This document shows positions 1,714 to 12,896 of a stretch of 33,237 nucleotides of DNA, piece by piece. The position numbers and the translations under genes are program-made. Positions within the stretch are counted from its first letter, which is position 1; the number at the start of each line of letters is the position of its first letter. The stretch comes from a virus (lineage: Duplodnaviria; Heunggongvirae; Uroviricota; Caudoviricetes): IMG/VR virus record IMGVR_UViG_2609459797_000007. One strand, given 5' to 3'. The notes under the pieces were generated by a model that saw only the letters and a list, made by a program, of their open reading frames with translations, searched no databases and was not told the DNA's origin.

Positions 1714-2193
1714 TTAGCGTGGAATACCGACCGTTAACAAAGCAATTAACTTTTCAGGAAAATTAAGATGCTCCCGACTTTCAATTCCCATAGAAATACA
1801 TGCCTTGTTTCGAGCGGGGTTATCCATGCACTCCATTACAATGCTATCGAATTCCTCAATCATAGAGAGACGTGCGGCAATCTCATCCGTACTCAGTTTG
1901 TTAATATCATCAATAAGAGCGGAGTAGCGTTTAGTCTGTTGTTTTGCTGCTTCCGCCCTTTCTCCGAAATGCCAGGCAATGCGGCACCCGCTAAGAATGG
2001 CGATGACTCCACCGAACAACCAACTGAAAGAGCTATTAGCAAACACGGATGCGCCAAGTATCAGCACAAGGGCGTTGAGTACGGTATCAATACGGCGGTT
2101 GAATATTTCGCCTATACGCTCAAGCCAATAGCTATTCCATATCCGAAAAATCAAAGCGGATCGCTTCTGATACTCAGTTGGTTGGGTGTTCAT
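1714..2193 (-). CDS. Hypothetical membrane protein with two predicted TM helices and a ~85-aa soluble C-terminal domain; accessory cargo in the immunity region
   Basis: 159-aa ORF. Two hydrophobic stretches (IDTVLNALVLILGASVFA and FSWLFGGVIAILSGCRIAW) followed by a charged, helical C-terminus. GAGGA Shine-Dalgarno 10 nt upstream of ATG. Sits between C and cox where P2 has no gene. Confidence 0.6.
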   Translation of the reverse strand: MNTQPTEYQKRSALIFRIWNSYWLERIGEIFNRRIDTVLNALVLILGASVFANSSFSWLFGGVIAILSGCRIAWHFGERAEAAKQQTKRYSALIDDINKLSTDEIAARLSMIEEFDSIVMECMDNPARNKACISMGIESREHLNFPEKLIALLTVGIPR

Positions 2194-3246: not shown

Positions 3247-3414
3247 ATGACAATTCAAACAAATGAACGCGCGCACCTGCTTGGGTTGTTACGTATCAAA
3301 TTGACCTTACTGAAAAAAGAAAAGCTGTCCACCAATGAAATTTATCGCAGCCTGGAAGACTGGATCTACAACAGAGAAAAGGCCGCAGAAATCAAGGAGC
3401 AAAAAAATGGTTAA
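3247..3414 (+). CDS. Hypothetical small protein (55 aa, MTIQTNERAHLLGLLRIKLTLLKKEKLSTNEIYRSLEDWIYNREKAAEIKEQKNG)
   Basis: Not in the supplied ORF track (below size cutoff). ATG at 3247 with an AGGAGG RBS 7 nt upstream. Its 3' end overlaps the methyltransferase start. Confidence 0.4.
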   Translation: MTIQTNERAHLLGLLRIKLTLLKKEKLSTNEIYRSLEDWIYNREKAAEIKEQKNG

Positions 3415-4390
3415 TTCCCCTCTGATCTGGGCGGGCGGCAAGTCTCGCGCGATGCCTCATGTACTGGAGGCTTTGCCAAAGGGTGAATGTCTCGTTGAGC
3501 CTTTTGTAGGTAGTGGTAGTGTCTTTCTGAACACTGACTATAAAACCTATATTCTGTGTGATAGCAACGCAGCGCTTATGAACTTCTATTCAATATTGAA
3601 GAGCAATACTAAATCGTTGCTAGATGTCGCTGCTACTCTATTTGATGGCGGTAATAATGAAGATGCATATTATAAACGCCGCAATGAATTTAATGATTTT
3701 AATCGTGGTTTTCCCCAGCATAATAAAAAAACTTCTGATGGAAAGGTTTATTATCAGAGTGAACTTGTAAAGTTTGCAGCATTATTCCTTTATCTAAACC
3801 GTCATTGCTATAACGGTTTATACCGAGTGAATGGGAAGAATGAATTTAACGTTCCATTTGGTCGTCGCCGCAAGCCAATTTTCCCTGTTGCAGAGATCCA
3901 GCACTTTGCAAAACGAGCATATGAGAAAGGTGCTCAGTTTCTTTGCGCTGATTTCCGTTACACCATCCCTGTTGCTAGTCGCATATTTGAGCGCACAGTA
4001 ATTTACTGTGATCCGCCTTACCTGCCAGCGAGTAAAACGGCTGATTTTACCGCGTACGGCAAACCCTTCACTGTCGATGATCACCGTGACCTGGTTGAGT
4101 CATTGATTACCGCTCATAACAACGAAGGATGCCTGTCTGTTTTTTCCGGTAGCGATACCCCGGAAACCCGCAAAATTTACTACCCGTTCACCCTTAATTC
4201 ATTCGAAATCCGCCGATCTGTAGGGGCCAAATCTCGCAACTTGGCTGGCGAGGTGATCGGCTCTCTACGCGTTTGTGGTTGTTGTGGGCGTACTGGCGGC
4301 GGTTGTCCTGATTGCGGTGCTGTGATGGGTGATGCGACCTATTCAGAAATGGTTGCCTCTGGTGCTTTTGATGATCAGGAGGTGTTCTGA
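3407..4390 (+). CDS. dam: DNA N6-adenine methyltransferase (Dam-like, alpha-class order FxGxG then DPPY) with a Cys-rich C-terminal tail
   Basis: Motif I (VEPFVGSGSVF) and motif IV (VIYCDPPYLPASK) in Dam order. Start taken at ATG 3407 (AAGGAG RBS); the track's upstream start at 3335 lacks an RBS. C-terminal CGCCGRTGGGCPDCG looks like a zinc ribbon. Confidence 0.8.
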   Translation: MVNSPLIWAGGKSRAMPHVLEALPKGECLVEPFVGSGSVFLNTDYKTYILCDSNAALMNFYSILKSNTKSLLDVAATLFDGGNNEDAYYKRRNEFNDFNRGFPQHNKKTSDGKVYYQSELVKFAALFLYLNRHCYNGLYRVNGKNEFNVPFGRRRKPIFPVAEIQHFAKRAYEKGAQFLCADFRYTIPVASRIFERTVIYCDPPYLPASKTADFTAYGKPFTVDDHRDLVESLITAHNNEGCLSVFSGSDTPETRKIYYPFTLNSFEIRRSVGAKSRNLAGEVIGSLRVCGCCGRTGGGCPDCGAVMGDATYSEMVASGAFDDQEVF

Positions 4391-4563: not shown

Positions 4564-4572
4564 GGCGGATTG

Positions 4573-7011
4573 ATGACTTCAGTTCGCCGCGCCCATAGCA
4601 TGACCTCCATGCCGGGAGGCTCGGTTGAGCCAGCCCGGTATGCTTACGCCTGGAATGAGCCTAAACAGGCCATTTCCGTCGATAAGACTCCCGCTGTTGA
4701 CCTATATGAATTGGGTCAAGAGCAGGAGTTTTTCGCATGGGTAGAAGATACCCTCAAGCCGTTACCTTCTTTCATTCGCCGCCGCATTGCTTTTTACATA
4801 AATACCGTTCACGAAGATAAAGGGCGTCATATCGCAAAACTGAAGCTGCGCGATATCGTTAAGCGCGAGCTTCCACACGTCCGTAACGTCACGAATCAAT
4901 ACGCAGTACCAGAAGACAATGATTGGATTATTTTCTCTGAACTAAACCCACTATTTCACACGTTTGAAAATCTGCGTGAGCTAGCGCACCGCTTTAATAA
5001 TCTGGCTGATAGTACCGATGAAGATATTGATTTGTTGGCACAGGACATTGCTATTTATGCCAATGCCGTTTTGGCTGAAGTGAGTGAAGGCGCGAGCGTG
5101 TTTAGTGATGCTGAGTACGGCAAACGCATGGTGCGTGAAGGCTCTAGACTAATTGCGTATTTCAGGTTGGTGGCACCTTGGGCTAAGAAGCGCCGGATGG
5201 CGCCTGATGAAGCGGCGGCGGCAATACAAAAAACCATGCACGATCGCTTTTGGTCACGCCTTCTGCGCAAGTACGCCCGCCGCTGGCGTGAGCATTTGCA
5301 CATTGCTTATGGTGATGTGCGCCGCGATGTTTCACCGTATTGCAGTAAACACCACGTTACACAGTGGGATTCCCGCCGTAAGCGTAGTCGCGAAATTATG
5401 AGCCGTCTTGAACTTGAAGATCAGGTAACTGGCGAGCGCATTTCGCTGATAGAGCAGATTGATAAAAGTATTTCTAACCCTGAAAAGCGCCGCGTTGAGT
5501 TGATGACGCGCATTGGTGGCTTTGAGAAAGTGGCAACAGAAAGCGGTTTTGCCGGTAGTTTCTTCACGTTGACCGCACCGTCTAAATATCATGCTTTTAC
5601 AGCATTCGGGCATCGTAACCATAAATGGAACGGAGCAAGCCCACGCAAAACACAGAACTACCTTAATCACGTCTGGCAACTGATCCGCGCGGAGCTTGCG
5701 CGCCGTGAGATTCCTGTTTTTGGCCTTCGCGTTGCTGAATCTCACCATGATGCTACTCCGCATTGGCATGGCCTTCTGTTCACTGCCCCAGAACATACCG
5801 GCGAGTTGTTGGAAGTGATGGAAGACTACGCCACACGTGAGGATGCAGACGAGCTAACCGGCAAGACTGGCAAGCAACCGCGCTTTGAGCTTAAGCCAAT
5901 AGATCCGGCTTTGGGGAGTGCTACTGGCTATGTTGTTAAGTACATATCTAAAAATATTGATGGCTACGCGCTGGATGGTGAAAGCGACGACGAAAGCGGA
6001 CGTCCACTGAAGGAAACAGCAAAACACGCTACCGCCTGGGCTTCATGCTGGGGCATTCGTCAGTTTCAGTTTTTGGGTGGTGCGCCGGTGTCTGTCTGGC
6101 GCGAGTTGCGCCGCCTGAAGAATCAGGAAATGGCAGATCGTATCAGTCCGGTTTTCGGTGAGTTACATCGCGCCGCACATGCGGGGAACTGGCAGGACTA
6201 CATTACCTTGCAGGGTGGCCCGTTCGTGGCACGGAATAGGCTTGTGTTGCGCGCATGGTATCAGTACCGGGATGAGCCGAGCAGTTACGGCGAGTTTCAG
6301 AGAGTCATTAAAGGCGTAGTCATGCCAGCATCGACTATTCCTCCGGTTGAAACCCGTCTCCATTCTTATCGTATTGTCAAAATGAAGCCAAAAGCAGACG
6401 ACGACGCTGGTCGAGGTTTTGACCTTAAGGGCGCGCCCGCGCCCTCTTGGACTCGTGTCAATAACTGTACCGAGTACAAAAAACAAACAGATTCACCGCC
6501 TGTTTATCCGACAGATCTGACTGTGCCAGATACTGATGCACTCCCTGAACAATTTGAAATTGGTCAATTGAGCCGAGATCAGAGAAAACAAATTGCGGTG
6601 GACCTCAGAAATCACAAACCAAATCAGCGTGTTTCACCTGCTGATCAGTTTGAGGCGCTCGCTTTCAGCATCACTACCGGTGACTGTACCGACTATGACC
6701 GGGTTAGGGCAGAAAGTTATCTGAAAGCAGCACATGCAATCCGGCAGGAAGAAAGCACGGTGAGCGAGAATGTTGCTGCACTTGCTGAAAAGATAATGAG
6801 TTGGGCAAGGTTAAGAAAAATTAAGATTAACCCTGTGCAGGCGCTGAAACTAGCAAGGGGTGAGGAGGTTACAGCGCTCGATACGATTTACCGAGCCAAC
6901 CTAATCACTGGGGAACTTATTGTGACTGGCGTGGACATGCATTGGCGTAAAACTCTTGCAAGACATCAGACAGAGGATCTAACCCTCCGTTGGAGGAAAG
7001 CAATAGGTTAA
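4573..7011 (+). CDS. A: Replication initiation protein A (rolling-circle HUH endonuclease, P2 gpA family)
   Basis: About 812-aa ORF. HUH motif ATPHWHGLLFTAP and paired tyrosines in GYVVKYISKN (Y-x-x-x-Y). Size and position match P2 gene A. The ATG at 4573 is preferred over the TTG at 4570. Confidence 0.85.
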   Translation: MTSVRRAHSMTSMPGGSVEPARYAYAWNEPKQAISVDKTPAVDLYELGQEQEFFAWVEDTLKPLPSFIRRRIAFYINTVHEDKGRHIAKLKLRDIVKRELPHVRNVTNQYAVPEDNDWIIFSELNPLFHTFENLRELAHRFNNLADSTDEDIDLLAQDIAIYANAVLAEVSEGASVFSDAEYGKRMVREGSRLIAYFRLVAPWAKKRRMAPDEAAAAIQKTMHDRFWSRLLRKYARRWREHLHIAYGDVRRDVSPYCSKHHVTQWDSRRKRSREIMSRLELEDQVTGERISLIEQIDKSISNPEKRRVELMTRIGGFEKVATESGFAGSFFTLTAPSKYHAFTAFGHRNHKWNGASPRKTQNYLNHVWQLIRAELARREIPVFGLRVAESHHDATPHWHGLLFTAPEHTGELLEVMEDYATREDADELTGKTGKQPRFELKPIDPALGSATGYVVKYISKNIDGYALDGESDDESGRPLKETAKHATAWASCWGIRQFQFLGGAPVSVWRELRRLKNQEMADRISPVFGELHRAAHAGNWQDYITLQGGPFVARNRLVLRAWYQYRDEPSSYGEFQRVIKGVVMPASTIPPVETRLHSYRIVKMKPKADDDAGRGFDLKGAPAPSWTRVNNCTEYKKQTDSPPVYPTDLTVPDTDALPEQFEIGQLSRDQRKQIAVDLRNHKPNQRVSPADQFEALAFSITTGDCTDYDRVRAESYLKAAHAIRQEESTVSENVAALAEKIMSWARLRKIKINPVQALKLARGEEVTALDTIYRANLITGELIVTGVDMHWRKTLARHQTEDLTLRWRKAIG

Positions 7012-7300
7012 ACGTCAAATATCATTTTCGTCGTCTATGTTGCTATCATCACAAGCTAGATTGAGGTGAAATGATGGTAATTGAAGGCCAGCTTTATGGG
7101 GGTAGTCCAAGCCCAAGCAAAGGGGCATTTAGAAAGAAATGCTTATATTCTGTCAATTATTGTTTTTGATCTTGGAATATTAGTGGGCTTAATTTACAGT
7201 GGGAAAAATATCACTTAACCTTGAAGCAAATATTTTACAGGTTTGGGTTTTAAAAATTTTTCTTTCAAAATAGTTGAAAAATTGGACAGCAATGAAACAT

Positions 7301-7332
7301 GTTGGTAGAAATAAGCCGTTGATTTTACGGCT
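7301..7332. terminator. Hairpin AAATAAGCCGT-tgatttt-ACGGCTTATTT with flanking T/A runs; candidate bidirectional terminator between gene A and the accessory island
   Basis: Perfect 11-bp stem read directly, followed by TTTTG on the + strand. About 40 nt downstream of the island's last gene on the - strand. Confidence 0.45.
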
Positions 7333-7372
7333 TATTTTTGAACACAATCACTATAGAGAACTTATGTCAGAA

Positions 7373-8170
7373 TTAGTCATCTAATGCTCCATCAAAATAG
7401 ATCTTTAATGCATTAAATAATTCTTGATAATGATTGCTATTGAAATCACCAGCTTCCCAAAGTTTGTACTTATCCTTAATGGTGTTTTTTGCAAATCCCT
7501 CTTTAAGGGTTTTGTTTACCACGCCACTTTTATCAAGAGGCTTATGATAAACGTCAACATAGAAGCATCTTACATCAAAATTCGCCCCTGTTGGCTTTAT
7601 TACATTAATATCAGAATAGTAGCAATTGTCTTTAACATGTTGATACGATGAAATATTTAAATGACCTAAAAGAGGTAAGACATCTTTAATATTTCCTTGG
7701 GTCGTGCAATATGCTGTCCACTCTTGTTTATACAAATATTTCAGCCAGTTATTGAAAAGTGTATTAGATTTATCTTTTTGGTAATATATGATCAGGCCGC
7801 CACTATTATCTCTTTTTATATATCGTGTTAATAGTTGTAATAAACCTTCAAAAATTTTCTGGTATCCATAACCAATTTTAGCTTCTGCAATCCAAACAAA
7901 TTCACCACCATTAGTTTTAGTGGTGACAGTTATATCAACACTGCCATTCTTTTTTGTTTGTTCGGTAGCCCGATAACCAAAATGTCCCAGTGATGTTACT
8001 ATTGTATGGCTGAGTTTATCCTCATCATCACAATAGTATTTATCACTTGATGACTCCATGGTTTTTATTATTTCTTCGATATCTTTGAAAAGTTGATTAT
8101 GAAAATCACTTTCAGTTATAAAGTAATCACGACGAACGAGATTAGTAGCAAGTGAATTAGTGTTCATCAT
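7373..8170 (-). CDS. Hypothetical protein (265 aa) with a PD-(D/E)xK-like motif; third gene of the accessory island
   Basis: AT-rich ORF. GSVDITV followed 16 residues later by EFVWIAEAKIG (hydrophobic strand then E-x-K), the classic restriction-endonuclease-fold signature. Start overlaps the upstream gene's stop. Confidence 0.6.
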   Translation of the reverse strand: MMNTNSLATNLVRRDYFITESDFHNQLFKDIEEIIKTMESSSDKYYCDDEDKLSHTIVTSLGHFGYRATEQTKKNGSVDITVTTKTNGGEFVWIAEAKIGYGYQKIFEGLLQLLTRYIKRDNSGGLIIYYQKDKSNTLFNNWLKYLYKQEWTAYCTTQGNIKDVLPLLGHLNISSYQHVKDNCYYSDINVIKPTGANFDVRCFYVDVYHKPLDKSGVVNKTLKEGFAKNTIKDKYKLWEAGDFNSNHYQELFNALKIYFDGALDD

Positions 8171-8597
8171 AATTCACCAGGCAATAAAAACTGAGATATT
8201 TTGGGTCGAAATCTTCAATTTCAACACCATTGTCATTCACCGGAACTTCATTATTAGTCATGAAGTTATTGTACTCGTCCTGATGAATGTCAATTCGTTC
8301 ATTATCAACCATCTCATAACAATATTTGATCTCAAATAAATTAGAATTGCCACCACTAAAAAAGCGGACAATTTCCAATAAGTCGGATGTTTTTTTTGCT
8401 TGAGTAGCAATTTGTAAAGTATGAATAGTATAAATATCAAGCTCAATATTATCAGCAATATAATTTAGTAGGTTGTGATAGTTCTGCAATTTACTCGGTT
8501 TAAAAAAAACCGAGTTTTTGCATAGTTCATCAACCAACTCATGTTGCTTTAAAATAATGGGCAACATTTTTTTATACCGTTCTGCTAAGGATGTCAT
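8157..8597 (-). CDS. Hypothetical protein (146 aa, acidic); second gene of the accessory island
   Basis: ORF overlapping both neighbours (26 nt upstream, 14 nt downstream), consistent with a translationally coupled operon. GGGGTGA RBS 5 nt before the ATG. No recognisable motif. Confidence 0.55.
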   Translation of the reverse strand: MTSLAERYKKMLPIILKQHELVDELCKNSVFFKPSKLQNYHNLLNYIADNIELDIYTIHTLQIATQAKKTSDLLEIVRFFSGGNSNLFEIKYCYEMVDNERIDIHQDEYNNFMTNNEVPVNDNGVEIEDFDPKYLSFYCLVNYDEH

Positions 8598-9651
8598 TTA
8601 TCACCCCATAGTGTGAAACAGTGTCGGCCATTTTATTAAAATAAAAAGCACCACAGAATTGATTGTTTGCCCAGTCATTTTTATTAGGTTCAAATCCTAT
8701 TTCATTCGATAACGATTCTGAACCAATTTTATAATCAAAACGAGCAGAAACACCACATACCTTCAAATTGGATATAGTTGAAGTTGAAGTATTGCCTTTA
8801 TTCGTCTCAACCACTTTTCTGTTTCTGGCGTCATAACTAGGTTTCGTTCTACATTTAAGGCTAGCATCCTCATCACCAACAGGATCGACGAAATCTACCT
8901 GCACTAATCGGCCAAAGGAAGCATCGTTGTATATATTATTAATTGCTTTATAAAAATTGACAGTTTCTAAATTTAAAGAAACATTGTTTTCAGACAAAAA
9001 CTCTAAAAACTTAATTCTTAAATCAGTAATTGCTCGTTCGAAAACGCGACGACCAAGTTTACGATCAACCCTATATTCAACACGACTTAAGTCATTAGGA
9101 ATGAAAACTGTATTGAAAAATTGAACAGGGTATTGGTTTGAGCGTAATTTACTTCTCCCACTGATTTTCTTAATTAACACATAAGAAAAGATAATTGCTA
9201 CACCATCTCCCATGTTTTCGACAGAAGTAATGAAATGCCCTGGTGAAGCAGGTAGTCCACTATCTTCATCAAGCTTCATAGGGAATGCATCACGAAAACA
9301 TTTTTCATAATTAGAATAATTAGCAAACTGAGAAATAGCTTTAAGGTTTCCACCTCGAATAAAATCAATAGCATAGTAATGATTTACAGAGGTTATTATT
9401 TTTAGCAATAATAATTTGAGAGACGCCTCAGTTGCAAGCTTATGAGCCATTCCAGGATTAGAAAGCGTTCGTATGATACTGTCTTTAGTTCCTGCCCATC
9501 GGGTTCCGATCTGGAATCCATAAGGTGTTCCTACGCGACGAAAAAATCCTAATTCTTCAGTTTGCTCAAGAGAAGTAAGAATCTTTTCAACTTCTTTTTG
9601 GTTAAATGTAGGCGCAGATTGGGTGGCTCCAAGCGCAGTTTGAGTAGTCAT
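8572..9651 (-). CDS. Hypothetical protein (359 aa); first gene of the accessory island
   Basis: Long AT-rich ORF with no P-loop, no HUH and no TIR-like pattern that I can see. Sits between A and cos, where P2 carries tin/old. Confidence 0.6.
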   Translation of the reverse strand: MTTQTALGATQSAPTFNQKEVEKILTSLEQTEELGFFRRVGTPYGFQIGTRWAGTKDSIIRTLSNPGMAHKLATEASLKLLLLKIITSVNHYYAIDFIRGGNLKAISQFANYSNYEKCFRDAFPMKLDEDSGLPASPGHFITSVENMGDGVAIIFSYVLIKKISGRSKLRSNQYPVQFFNTVFIPNDLSRVEYRVDRKLGRRVFERAITDLRIKFLEFLSENNVSLNLETVNFYKAINNIYNDASFGRLVQVDFVDPVGDEDASLKCRTKPSYDARNRKVVETNKGNTSTSTISNLKVCGVSARFDYKIGSESLSNEIGFEPNKNDWANNQFCGAFYFNKMADTVSHYGVINDILSRTV

Positions 9652-9905
9652 TTATTCTTCATTCCATTGCTGAGGCAAGTTAAGTCTGTTTAGTTTACCC
9701 AAGCGTTGATTTTATACAACAAAACATGCAGCGTTTAAGCAAGAGATATTAGTGTTTTTTGACATTTTCTACATATTTTCAACTGCACAAGCGTGCACAA
9801 AAACGCACAATAAACAGGGTTTTATTTTTGATGGATCTCCGCAGGATCTGCGCTGGTTAGCAGCGGATCTGCAAGTGCACAAAAACAGGCGTGTTTGTTG
9901 CGCGC

Positions 9906-9924
9906 AGGTGACGGGGGGAAAGCC
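9906..9924. other. cos site, candidate cohesive-end sequence GGTGACGGGGGGAAAGCCC (P2/186 cos-like)
   Basis: G-rich 19-mer resembling the P2 cohesive end as I recall it (GGCGAGGCGGGGAAAGCAC). Lies immediately upstream of the Q-P packaging genes as in P2. Flanked by repeated GTGCACAAAAAC motifs near 9790 and 9872. Confidence 0.5.
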
Positions 9925-10110
9925 CGCGCGGCGGGGGGGGAAGGGGTATACCTCAAATATAGGGAAATTGGCGCAATTCTGGCGCGCTGCTGCGTTCTGT
10001 GTGTTGTGTGCGGGTAATGGCGTGTTTAGATTATGGGGCGCTTAGAATGGCGCTGGCGTGCCGTGTATTGATGTGATGCGGAGAGCGCCGCCGGGATGGC
10101 GGCGGGTTGG

Positions 10111-11172
10111 TTATTTCATGGTTTCCAGCAGGGCGTAAGGTTTAAAGCGGATCACTTCTTCCCCCAGCCAGTCGTTGACGTGCTTCAGCGCTTCCATTGC
10201 TGGCATTAGTTCGTTGATGGCAAACACGCGCGCGGCCTTCTCCACATCACCGAATGAGCCGTTGCCGTCCGGCATGGCCCCCATCAGTTGCGGTGGTACG
10301 CGGTGAGCCGCCAGAATGTCATCGCGTGTCGCTGATTTAATATTTAAAAACTCATCCTTTGCTGATATCTGGCTGAAGGGCATCAGTTGTACCCCGTCTT
10401 TACCGCCGCCTGGCGCGTGGATCACTACGTTCTTAAATGCCCCTTTGTTTCTGGCTCCCGCCAGTGTTTGCTGTATGACTTTTACGCCAGCGTCGTCCAC
10501 CTGTGATGTGCCGATATACAGAATGCATCCGGCATGAGATCCGTTTTCGTAATACATCTTGCGGAACATGTCCGCCGAGTGTGACAGGCTGGCTGACAAT
10601 AGCGCGCCCATGTACTCCGGCATCCCGTAGATCTCCTGATGAATGTCAGGGTTCAACACATGGCAGACAGAGCCGGTTTTAAAAGCTGATTCGTCTTTCC
10701 ACTGCCTGATAAACCAGTATGTATCCAGGTCAATGCCACGCCGGGTGTATTTCGCCGGGGAATGGCGGAGCGGTAGCAGCCCGCCTAGTCGGTTATTTCG
10801 TTCTTCCAGGTAGAAGTTGCCAAACACAAACCAGTCAAGCGCCAGGGCGGAGAACGTCTGGCGAGACAGTAGCGGGTGTGGGATGAAGAAACCCGCCAGC
10901 GCGTTGCGCTTGAAGTACAGCGCTGACTGGTGCCAGGACGCCTTGCCGAATGAGCGCGCAAGCCCGTACCAGTCCACCGGTGTTTCGTAATATCTGCCGT
11001 TATCGGCGCAATACATATTGTCGAGCAGGTCGTAAGCGTCAGCGACCTGGTATGGCCCATCAAAGGTGAAAGCGCTAAGGGCTGGATCGCGCTTCAGTGC
11101 TTCACCAATATCATGTTGCTGTGTACCGTCAGTAAGCATAGTCAGGCCGCTTTCGTGTGTTGTTGTGTTCAT
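10111..11172 (-). CDS. Q: Portal (capsid vertex) protein, P2 gpQ family
   Basis: About 353-aa ORF next to cos and downstream of the terminase ATPase; its ATG overlaps the P stop (TAATG). Size and synteny match P2 Q. The track's longer start at 11253 overlaps P and is unlikely. Confidence 0.8.
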   Translation of the reverse strand: MNTTTHESGLTMLTDGTQQHDIGEALKRDPALSAFTFDGPYQVADAYDLLDNMYCADNGRYYETPVDWYGLARSFGKASWHQSALYFKRNALAGFFIPHPLLSRQTFSALALDWFVFGNFYLEERNNRLGGLLPLRHSPAKYTRRGIDLDTYWFIRQWKDESAFKTGSVCHVLNPDIHQEIYGMPEYMGALLSASLSHSADMFRKMYYENGSHAGCILYIGTSQVDDAGVKVIQQTLAGARNKGAFKNVVIHAPGGGKDGVQLMPFSQISAKDEFLNIKSATRDDILAAHRVPPQLMGAMPDGNGSFGDVEKAARVFAINELMPAMEALKHVNDWLGEEVIRFKPYALLETMK

Positions 11173-12896
11173 TAAAACTCTCTTACGGAACCGCCGCCGC
11201 TGCCGTTCTCGCGTCCAAGTGGCTCGTTGATGATTGCCAGCATATTTGCCCAAGCTAAGTCGCCATGACTGACGCCGCGCGCGCGATCGGTGTCATAGGT
11301 AATTTGTCCACCGGCGGTGGTGATTTTCCTGACGGCGTTGAATGCTGACACTAACGCCTGTTCACTACGGTCATACTCCCAGCGGCCCGCGCGGATCACC
11401 TGCTGCATTTTGAGTACCAGAGTGCGCTTTGATGACAGCGACATGATGAAACAGACCGCCGCCGGGAAGAATTTCTTGACCAGTTGCCAGACCGCTTCAC
11501 CAATGCCGGTACCGTCAATTGCGATGTGCCGGACGTTGTATTTAATGGTCAGGTCTTCGATCACTTTGGCCTGTTCTTCAAACTCCATCCCGCGTAGCTG
11601 GCGCGTCTCTATCGTGCGGAACTTGCCGCCACTGACCAGGGGAGGGGTAACCACGGAAACAGCGCCGCTGTCACCGTTGCCACTGCCGCCGTTGGCGTCG
11701 TAGCCTATCCAGACTTCACGATCGCCAAGCGGGCGGGGGGCGTAGGGTTTCCAGTCCTGCCAGTCGTCGTAGCCGTCCGCGCCGCACGTCAGTAGCTGAT
11801 TAAGTGAGAAAACGGATTCGCCTTCTTTGACGAACTCACACATGTACAGGTTGGTGTATTCATCCGGGGTATTTTCGTCCTGAATTTCTTCCAGATCGGT
11901 GAACTCCCAGCCGTGGTCGATCACGTCCTTCAGGGTGACAATCTGCCGCCAGGTTTTGTCCGGGCACAACAGGCCGCTGTTGAGTGTCTTCCAGCTTGTG
12001 TCGAAGTCTACCCGGCTGGATTTGGCCCGCTTCTCATTCCAGCGCTTGCCCGTCCAGAACGGGTAGGCTTCATGGTTTTCGCTCGATGGCGTTGAAAAGT
12101 AAGTGCGCGTAAGCCCTTTCAGGGTTGCCATAGCTCCAGCTACTTTGCGAAGGTTTGCAAAGTTACCTACCCAGAAAAACTCATCAAAAAACAGGTTGCC
12201 GGTGTAGCTCTGCGCGGTAGCGGCAGACGTGCCGAGAAAATGCAATTCAGCGCCGTTCGACAATAGAATTTTGTCACCGCCTTTTAGTTCTACGTCTACC
12301 TCTTCGGCAATCTTCTGGATGAAGCCACGGAACTGGTGCGCCTGGCGACGCGACGCTGATAGAAAAATCTGGTTGCGCTGATATCCGTGCTTAATGTCAT
12401 CTCGCAGCGCCTGTAATAGTGCCTCGCGGGCAAAGTACCAGGTTGCGCCAATCTGGCGGCTTTTCAGGATCATGCGGTTTCGTTGCTGGCGCTGTTCAAA
12501 CCATCCCTGCTGATGCCAGGCCAGAGAGTCCTGAATCTTTTCCCGTAGCGCGGCGATCTGCGCTTCGGTGAAGTGGTTTTTCTTCTTGCTCGCGCGCGCC
12601 TTCTTGAAGGGTTGCGCCGGTTGCCCTTCTGCCAGTTTCTTCACCTGGCGCGTGAGCGCGTCGATTTCTTTCAGATCGCTGCCGGTCTTCGTTGGTTTCA
12701 TCGCGATTTGGCATAACCGGGCATCAATAGATTGCGTGACGCGCTGAATTGCGGGCGTTTCGTCCCATTCGTCGCGTTTCTTCCACGAATAAACCGTGTT
12801 TGAACTGATACCCATCAGGCGTGAAATCTCTGCTGGCGGGTAGCCCTGCCAGTAAAGCTGCTTTGCTCTCTGTCTTACAAATGCGTCCTGGATCAT
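11172..12896 (-). CDS. P: Terminase large (ATPase) subunit, P2 gpP family
   Basis: Roughly 575-600-aa ORF divergent from O. Start taken at the internal Met (12896) because the track's start at 12980 would run through the late-promoter dyad. Synteny with P2 P. Confidence 0.8.
   Translation of the reverse strand: MIQDAFVRQRAKQLYWQGYPPAEISRLMGISSNTVYSWKKRDEWDETPAIQRVTQSIDARLCQIAMKPTKTGSDLKEIDALTRQVKKLAEGQPAQPFKKARASKKKNHFTEAQIAALREKIQDSLAWHQQGWFEQRQQRNRMILKSRQIGATWYFAREALLQALRDDIKHGYQRNQIFLSASRRQAHQFRGFIQKIAEEVDVELKGGDKILLSNGAELHFLGTSAATAQSYTGNLFFDEFFWVGNFANLRKVAGAMATLKGLTRTYFSTPSSENHEAYPFWTGKRWNEKRAKSSRVDFDTSWKTLNSGLLCPDKTWRQIVTLKDVIDHGWEFTDLEEIQDENTPDEYTNLYMCEFVKEGESVFSLNQLLTCGADGYDDWQDWKPYAPRPLGDREVWIGYDANGGSGNGDSGAVSVVTPPLVSGGKFRTIETRQLRGMEFEEQAKVIEDLTIKYNVRHIAIDGTGIGEAVWQLVKKFFPAAVCFIMSLSSKRTLVLKMQQVIRAGRWEYDRSEQALVSAFNAVRKITTAGGQITYDTDRARGVSHGDLAWANMLAIINEPLGRENGSGGGSVREF

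Follow-up and report, generated by a model that had tools for sequence, protein, structure and literature searches.

Whether the three leftward genes lying between replication gene A (gpA) and the portal gene Q of a P2-like prophage encode an anti-phage system is the question raised by IMG/VR virus record IMGVR_UViG_2609459797_000007, a Caudoviricetes sequence of 33,237 nucleotides (nt; the window). The genes, here called gA, gB and gC, had been put forward in a preliminary description of this DNA as a novel defence operon. We find that the candidate is real and coherent, has yet to be characterised and has more comparative support than the preliminary description could draw on; it is neither unprecedented nor domain-less, and such candidates are numerous at the P2 hotspot. 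The catalytic motif of gC is intact, the three genes are obligatorily linked and have diverged together, and the unit occupies accessory slots on unrelated mobile elements. Anti-phage activity is inferred from this context, and in our opinion the cassette is probably a three-component anti-phage (or anti-mobile-element) system in which gC is the nuclease effector.

gC and its two partners

The product of gC is predicted to be a PD-(D/E)xK nuclease. In the gC alignment of 29 sequences from cassettes of the window type (the long-C clade), residues E50, D79 (in VDITV), E96-A-K98 (in WIAEAK), Q112, R116 and Y117 are invariant, and the same residues are still invariant after the addition of proteins at approximately 25% identity from a distant clade (17 mixed-clade sequences). 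This second clade, the short-C clade, has proteins of 338–368, 130–153 and 210–221 amino acids (aa). As judged from these alignments, the motifs follow the canonical PD-(D/E)xK order, in which an acidic residue precedes D and (D/E)-x-K comes after it, and their arrangement is the one expected for the alpha-beta-beta-beta-alpha-beta core; Q112, R116 and Y117 lie in the segment behind them. The C-terminal half of gC carries a conserved P211-x-D213-K-S215-G, followed by a helical tail.

Profile searches point in the same direction, with matches of different strength. Residues 12–137 of gC match positions 233–356 (of 410) of the PADLOC candidate model PDC-S54 with E=1.4e-7, the sole PADLOC match of the trio, and the gC homologues of the Stx phages and of Vibrio weakly match the same region. 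What PDC-S54 and gC have in common is a nuclease-type domain only, as PDC-S54 models a single protein of ~410 aa, the first 230 positions of which have no counterpart in gA, gB or gC, and a full-length match was not obtained with any of the three. PDDEXK_9 was weakly matched by 7 of the 29 gC family members (best E=0.013) and Mrr_cat by 1 of the 29 (E=0.15), all below threshold, and one Acinetobacter homologue gave a weak match to HamA (DUF1837, E=0.012). The protein is placed in phrog_9664 (1e-60), a family of unknown function. Its homologues form 30 clusters among 5.8 billion proteins, all annotated as hypothetical, without a Pfam domain and mostly from Enterobacterales, reaching Shewanella, Pseudoalteromonas and Vibrio.

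For gA and gB there was no match in Pfam, NCBIfam, PADLOC or the Protein Data Bank (PDB). None of the three has a model in NCBIfam release 20 (June 2026), and searches for PDB sequence homologues of the trio with single sequences, clade profiles and both-clade profiles returned noise only. Among the same 5.8 billion proteins, homologues of gA and gB form 23 and 13 clusters, respectively, all hypothetical, without a Pfam domain and again mostly from Enterobacterales. The gA protein is basic and arginine-rich, it is the most divergent of the trio between clades, and it has a weak colinear match to phrog_12777 (E=4.3e-5), while gB is acidic in every clade (pI 4.4–5.1). No transmembrane segments were predicted in gA, gB or gC, and no domain shared among them, such as a degenerate nuclease in gA, was found. 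The preliminary description had recognised no defence protein family in any of the three products; this holds for gA and gB, for which the profile searches match no named system, and has to be withdrawn for the 265-aa gC, given its invariant PD-(D/E)xK motif and its PDC-S54 match.

A co-inherited unit in accessory slots

The open reading frames (ORFs) are exactly as first described, with 359, 146 and 265 aa on the leftward strand and overlaps of 26 nt between gA and gB and 14 nt between gB and gC. The 26-nt overlap is seen again in nearly all enterobacterial homologous loci, and a GGGG Shine-Dalgarno-like element lies 6 nt 5' of the first gB ATG; many database entries start gB at Met11 (136 aa), which makes gA and gB abut without overlap, and the genes are tightly coupled whichever start holds. 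Since the proteins are conserved across many genera, the three ORFs are genes and not chance reading frames. None of the 11 other IMG/VR loci lacks a member of the A-B-C triple, nor do the three genome loci or those of Vibrio, the Stx phages, Klebsiella, Acinetobacter and Moraxella; in pairwise comparisons (16 loci, 120 locus pairs), the identities of the A, B and C proteins rise and fall together, with correlations of 0.93–0.95. We therefore read the genes as one functional unit, on account of the overlapping or abutting ORFs, the complete triples and the correlated identities, and the single operon first proposed for them is borne out as one co-inherited unit of constant gene order.

The two clades belong together with different certainty for each gene. 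By sequence comparison, the B and C genes of the short-C clade are clearly homologous to gB and gC; gB matches the middle gene of the Stx-phage cassette with E=1e-4 (HMM 21 bits). The middle gene of the Vibrio cassette is homologous to gB as well (E=4e-11). The first gene of the short-C clade is probably homologous to gA, as the short-C first genes define phrog_12777, the very family that gA matches colinearly, and as the motifs agree along the whole length in a joint first-gene alignment of both clades, with an hhalign comparison of the long- and short-clade first genes giving E=0.002 over 150 colinear columns at a probability of only 14%.

The 11 further IMG/VR contigs with A-B-C are all P2-like, and each has the trio between portal and gpA, on backbones that are strongly diverged (48–77% identity for the portal and 29–74% for gpA). 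The trio occupies the same slot in P2-like prophages of Serratia proteamaculans and Rahnella ecdela, and a Klebsiella P2-like element likewise has a short-C cassette between gpA and portal. In a 14.8-kb tailless (Vinavirales) prophage of Vibrio cyclitrophicus, A-B-C adjoins the integrase gene, and in Stx1a lambdoid phages the short-C cassette is a moron-like insert between Q and stx1A. Moraxella phage Mcat13 and an Acinetobacter contig with housekeeping neighbours also hold short-C cassettes, and on the Shewanella decolorationis chromosome A-B-C lies ~5 kb from a JetD_C/DUF7281 cluster. Beside the cassette, the Rahnella ecdela hotspot has a 257-aa FRG-domain protein that matches the PADLOC candidate PDC-S15 (5e-83). 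Overall, the long-C clade was found in 3 of 100,044 species-representative genomes (scan with conserved peptides from the long-clade gC alignment), and the window variant in none of 5,426 complete E. coli genomes (DNA search); this rarity fits sporadic, horizontally moved cargo.

Several of these loci hold further cargo. In Rahnella ecdela (locus L023), extra genes stand on both sides of the cassette (6264–7331 and 10941–11714), namely one for a 355-aa protein without a Pfam or PADLOC match and that of the PDC-S15/FRG protein. In Shewanella decolorationis (L024, 8499–12804), a JetD_C/DUF7281/Toprim protein is followed on the same strand by ORFs of 407, 220 and 506 aa, a cluster that may be Wadjet-like. 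The other end of the Vibrio prophage (PQ189315.1; L001, 354–1399) has a MazF/PemK-like toxin gene by a LexA/S24-like repressor, so that the element has two accessory modules. Tailless Vibrio prophages are reported to possess an accessory locus in which defence systems and toxin-antitoxin pairs are enriched (PMC11630473), and the Vibrio cassette may lie in that locus. Short-C cassettes occur in seven Stx1a-converting phages (e.g., LC567825, L002, 3493–5600; L035–L037), opposite in orientation to Q and stx1 and directly upstream of the Shiga toxin genes, a position that may bear on how Stx1a-converting prophages compete or on the expression of stx.

In the window, gpA and the portal gene flank the cassette, and gpA is convergent with it. 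The gpA–gpQ interval is the P2 hotspot of Rousset et al. (2022, Cell Host Microbe, PMC9122126), who count 18,150 loci and 1,650 arrangements, along with 169 curated systems; it houses tin/old together with several validated systems and has itself been validated as a defence hotspot. The window corresponds to IMG/VR contig UViG_2609460356_000007, and an identical cassette is present on at least 24 contigs, E. coli draft assemblies included, and wherever it is displayed the gene order is that of P2 (int, C, cox, Dam-like methylase, gpA, cassette, portal Q, terminase P, scaffold O, capsid N). Window positions 9824–10000 are 88–92% identical to other E. coli P2-like prophages, within conserved cos-proximal DNA at about 9824–10100, and this conservation next to Q is consistent with the cos region. 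The G+C content is 0.31–0.35 over 7001–9500 and ~0.52 on both sides; for the cassette itself it is 0.337, with flanks at 0.517, and a deficit of 7–19 points relative to the flanks is present in 16 of 16 homologous loci, in every host.

The gpA of the window's backbone lineage is present in only 11 of the 5,426 complete E. coli genomes, and the slot holds different cargo in all four backbone relatives examined among these 11. E. coli ES1 has a second, orphan adenine methylase, type II-like, and CFSAN051542 has IetA and IetS, the known Ietas system (PADLOC 7e-78 and 2e-50). In EC26 (NZ_CP060880.1; L027, 8026–12228) the slot has a helix-turn-helix (HTH) gene, a RelE-family toxin gene and genes for proteins of 128 aa and 932 aa (the larger one hypothetical), neither of which has a PADLOC match. 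The cassette thus resides in a validated defence hotspot, where other cargo, including Ietas, takes its place on related backbones, and the position between replication gene A and cos, the tin/old slot of P2, as well as the lower G+C content expected of accessory cargo, agree with what had been proposed for this locus.

The remaining relative, AMSCJX04 (NZ_CP058308.1; L026, 8031–10510), carries a leftward trio of 469, 114 and 253 aa with a G+C content of 0.36 vs. 0.50. A relationship of this trio to the window cassette was considered and rejected, as its proteins show no similarity to gA, gB or gC; having no PADLOC match either, it is another uncharacterised candidate.

Catalogued relatives and rival explanations

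The claim of novelty is overstated. System #145 of Rousset et al., listed as ‘DUF5939 | DpnII-MboI’ (Table S5B, PMC9122126), contains homologues of all three window proteins and occurs 14 times in the same gpA–gpQ hotspot of P2-like prophages in E. coli. Its gA and gC counterparts (clusters P0013 and P0031) are 56% and 57–58% identical to the window proteins, and its gB is homologous too. It differs in being a sequence variant at ~56% that was catalogued only with HHpred-derived labels, and it was catalogued but not tested, because its sequence motifs are absent from the table of cloned and tested systems (PMC9122126). PF18742 DpnII-MboI sits among the PD-(D/E)xK families in the HHpred table of the same study (PMC9122126), from which we infer that this half of the label refers to the gC homologue; the DUF5939 label was not reproduced with HMMER on the cassette proteins. 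Apart from this entry of 2022, PHROG families already existed for gC and for the gA and gB counterparts of the distant clade. A literature search found no paper that names DUF5939, PDC-S54 or the three PHROG identifiers and no later characterisation of three-gene nuclease systems of the P2 hotspot, and no published anti-phage phenotype for the cassette family was found. What is new relative to the 2022 catalogue is one co-evolving A-B-C superfamily across P2-like, lambdoid Stx1a and tailless Vibrio prophages and chromosomal sites.

Among characterised systems, Hachiman (HamA), nuclease-type Lamassu (LmuA) and Shedu resemble the cassette in coupling a PD-(D/E)xK effector to non-catalytic or sensing partners. 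Unlike these, the cassette has no helicase, SMC or ATPase partner that could be detected with Pfam, NCBIfam or PADLOC. That it is merely a diverged copy of a named and validated system of the same hotspot, i.e., Rst_3HP or tin/old, we consider extremely improbable. Rst_3HP (‘hp + hp + hp’, pFR109, E. coli E1114) also counts three domain-less genes in this hotspot and protects against P1 (PMC9122126); its proteins differ in size from those of the cassette, no nuclease motif is noted for it, and hmmsearch and hhalign comparisons of the gA, gB and gC profiles with 3HP_1, 3HP_2 and 3HP_3 gave noise only. P2 tin/old are likewise leftward accessory genes of the same slot, which exclude other phages (PMC9122126). 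Tin was rejected, as HMM and profile comparisons returned noise; for Old, which was not compared directly, the Pfam and PADLOC searches gave no match with gA or gB and only PDC-S54 with gC. Two other candidates were rejected as well, namely a relationship to the cII protein of gop-beta-cII (no similarity by profile comparison) and the possibility that gA or gB is the equivalent of the N-terminal part of the single ‘DUF5939/Mrr_cat’ protein of the P4 hotspot (no similarity over its first 399 aa).

The reading of the cassette as a defence system with gC as nuclease effector rests, for the nuclease, on the residues invariant in both clades, the PDC-S54 match, the weak PDDEXK_9, Mrr_cat and HamA matches and the ‘DpnII-MboI’ label, and, for a defence-type context, on the P2 hotspot, its alternating cargo, the PDC-S15 neighbour, the integrase site in Vibrio, the moron-like site in Stx phages and the JetD-like neighbour in Shewanella. 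To hypothesize, gA, as the basic, arginine-rich and most divergent protein, may be a sensor or specificity subunit recognising a phage cue or nucleic acid, and gB, small, acidic and encoded just upstream of and overlapping the nuclease gene, may either bridge gA to gC or restrain gC in the manner of an antitoxin. Infection would then release or activate gC, which would cut DNA, with the result that the invader genome would be destroyed directly or, if cutting were indiscriminate, that infection would be abortive. We are far less sure of the individual roles of gA and gB than of the overall defence reading.

Several points weigh against this interpretation. No curated PD-(D/E)xK model reaches threshold on gC, and the window gC has no Pfam match. 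What gA and gB do is guessed from their size, their charge and the order of the genes, with no domain, motif or structural homologue recognised for either, and single-sequence structure models were unusable (pLDDT 33.8 for gA and 46.7 for gB). Scanning for a consensus sigma-70 promoter 5' of gA revealed no strong one, and for this reason expression of the cassette in the lysogen is unproven. Within P2-like loci the divergence of the cassette roughly tracks that of the backbone, so part of its spread may be vertical. The hotspot itself is no guarantee, as old-tin was active there and only three of eight further cloned candidates protected against the phage panel (PMC9122126), and as its cargo includes non-defence genes such as partition systems and a cytolethal distending toxin (PMC9122126).

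Two other explanations start from the same genes. In type II toxin-antitoxin systems the antitoxin gene usually precedes the toxin gene, and a small protein that is acidic in all clades, encoded directly upstream of and overlapping a nuclease gene, fits such a pair, with gC as toxin, gB as antitoxin, gA as regulator and post-segregational killing or maintenance of the element as the main role in place of protection from other phages. Toxin-antitoxin pairs are frequent at the same hotspots, as with RelE in EC26, the MazF-like gene in the Vibrio element and the enrichment in tailless Vibrio prophages (PMC11630473). However, three genes and not two are strictly conserved, a third component of 359 aa is atypical of maintenance modules, and neither an antitoxin-type DNA-binding domain nor a known toxin family was detected with Pfam, NCBIfam, PADLOC or PHROGs; we therefore regard an addiction module as unlikely, with the reservation that many toxin-antitoxin-like modules of hotspots prove to act in phage defence, so that the two explanations overlap. 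Service to the carrier phage, be it by degradation of host or competitor DNA, as a recombination module or by anti-restriction and counter-defence, and with no protection of the lysogen, seems to us quite unlikely. PD-(D/E)xK exonucleases paired with partner proteins do occur in phage recombination modules, and the cassette is almost confined to phage-derived elements, whose accessory loci in prophages also house counter-defence genes (PMC11630473). Against such a service stands the placement, which is convergent with the early operon in P2-like elements, opposite to Q and stx1 in Stx1a phages and moron-like, not that of a replication or recombination module. The cassette is moreover absent from most relatives of each backbone and hence dispensable for the phage life cycle, it has no similarity to known recombinases or annealing proteins, and some copies are chromosomal, with no phage genes in the vicinity.

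A bolder form of the defence reading is that gA and gB are two new folds, forming an undescribed sensing and control module that gates a PD-(D/E)xK nuclease without ATPase, helicase, nucleotide signal or protease, and that phrog_12777, phrog_11490 and phrog_9664 with their long-C relatives constitute a distinct defence system. We hold this to be rather doubtful; if true, the system would be common to two viral realms, one with the tailed P2-like and lambdoid phages and the other with the tailless prophages of Vibrio, and would lie immediately upstream of stx1 in Shiga-toxin phages. If the cassette is active at all, a compact, ATPase-free, three-protein nuclease system of 2.3 kb would be added to the bacterial immune repertoire, and the sensing and nuclease control exerted by two components without known domain could reveal a new mechanism of trigger recognition. 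Should it prove inactive, it would join the unvalidated cargo among the systems listed for the P2 hotspot. The catalytic residues of gC are named concretely here and can be mutated.

Features of the locus and neighbouring genes

Positions of the cassette genes, their signals and the boundaries of the hotspot in the window are collected in Table 1.

Table 1. Features of the cassette and its hotspot boundaries, in window coordinates.
Feature	Position	Strand	Description	Basis
gA	8572–9651	minus	359 aa, pI 9.0, soluble	ORF call
gB	8157–8597	minus	146 aa (136 aa if started at Met11, position 8567), pI 4.7	ORF call
gC	7373–8170	minus	265 aa; N-terminal predicted PD-(D/E)xK nuclease domain	ORF call
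gC catalytic-core codons	7820–8023	minus	E50, D79, E96-A-K98, Q112...R116-Y117	Alignment invariance
Stem-loop 3' of gC	7309–7337	minus	11-bp stem, 7-nt loop	RNA folding
gA upstream region, AT-rich	9652–9760	minus	Weak sigma-70-like candidate and purine-rich ribosome-binding region before ATG; tentative	
gpA (replication gene A)	4570–7011	plus	Left hotspot boundary; ‘replication endonuclease’ in relatives	PF05840 Phage_GPA on identical gene in L003–L006
Portal gene Q	10111–11253	minus	Right hotspot boundary	PF04860 Phage_portal

A hairpin had been placed at the end of the operon, at 7301–7332. It exists and is stable, its position being 7309–7337, with dG -14.9 kcal/mol and z = -5.76 (none of 200 shuffles folds as well). 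It begins 36 nt past the gC stop codon; the U tract behind it is weak, which is why a simple terminator scan did not call it; it is likely to be the terminator of the cassette transcript.

At the other end, the tentative promoter upstream of gA consists of a -35 element TTGTAT (9719–9714) and a -10 element TAAACT (9697–9692) on the minus strand, with a spacer of 16 nt. The arrangement TTGAAT, 16 nt, TAAACT and the downstream CTTGCCTCA are kept in the two closest homologous loci (L011 and L012). In the 5' region of gA, the segment GTAAACTA...ACTTnCCTTGCCTCA is common to the window and these two loci, whose proteins are only ~66–71% identical, and it could be a promoter, an operator or a 5'-UTR (untranslated region) element.

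Elsewhere in the window, a 159-aa ORF without a Pfam match (1714–2193, minus strand) lies between the Cox gene and a C-type HTH repressor gene, on the strand of the repressor and integrase, and could be a second accessory gene expressed in the lysogen. A Dam-like adenine methylase gene (MethyltransfD12; 3335–4390, plus strand) lies in the early operon just 5' of gpA, and the G+C content dips locally to 0.39 at 3501–4000, in the region of this methylase.

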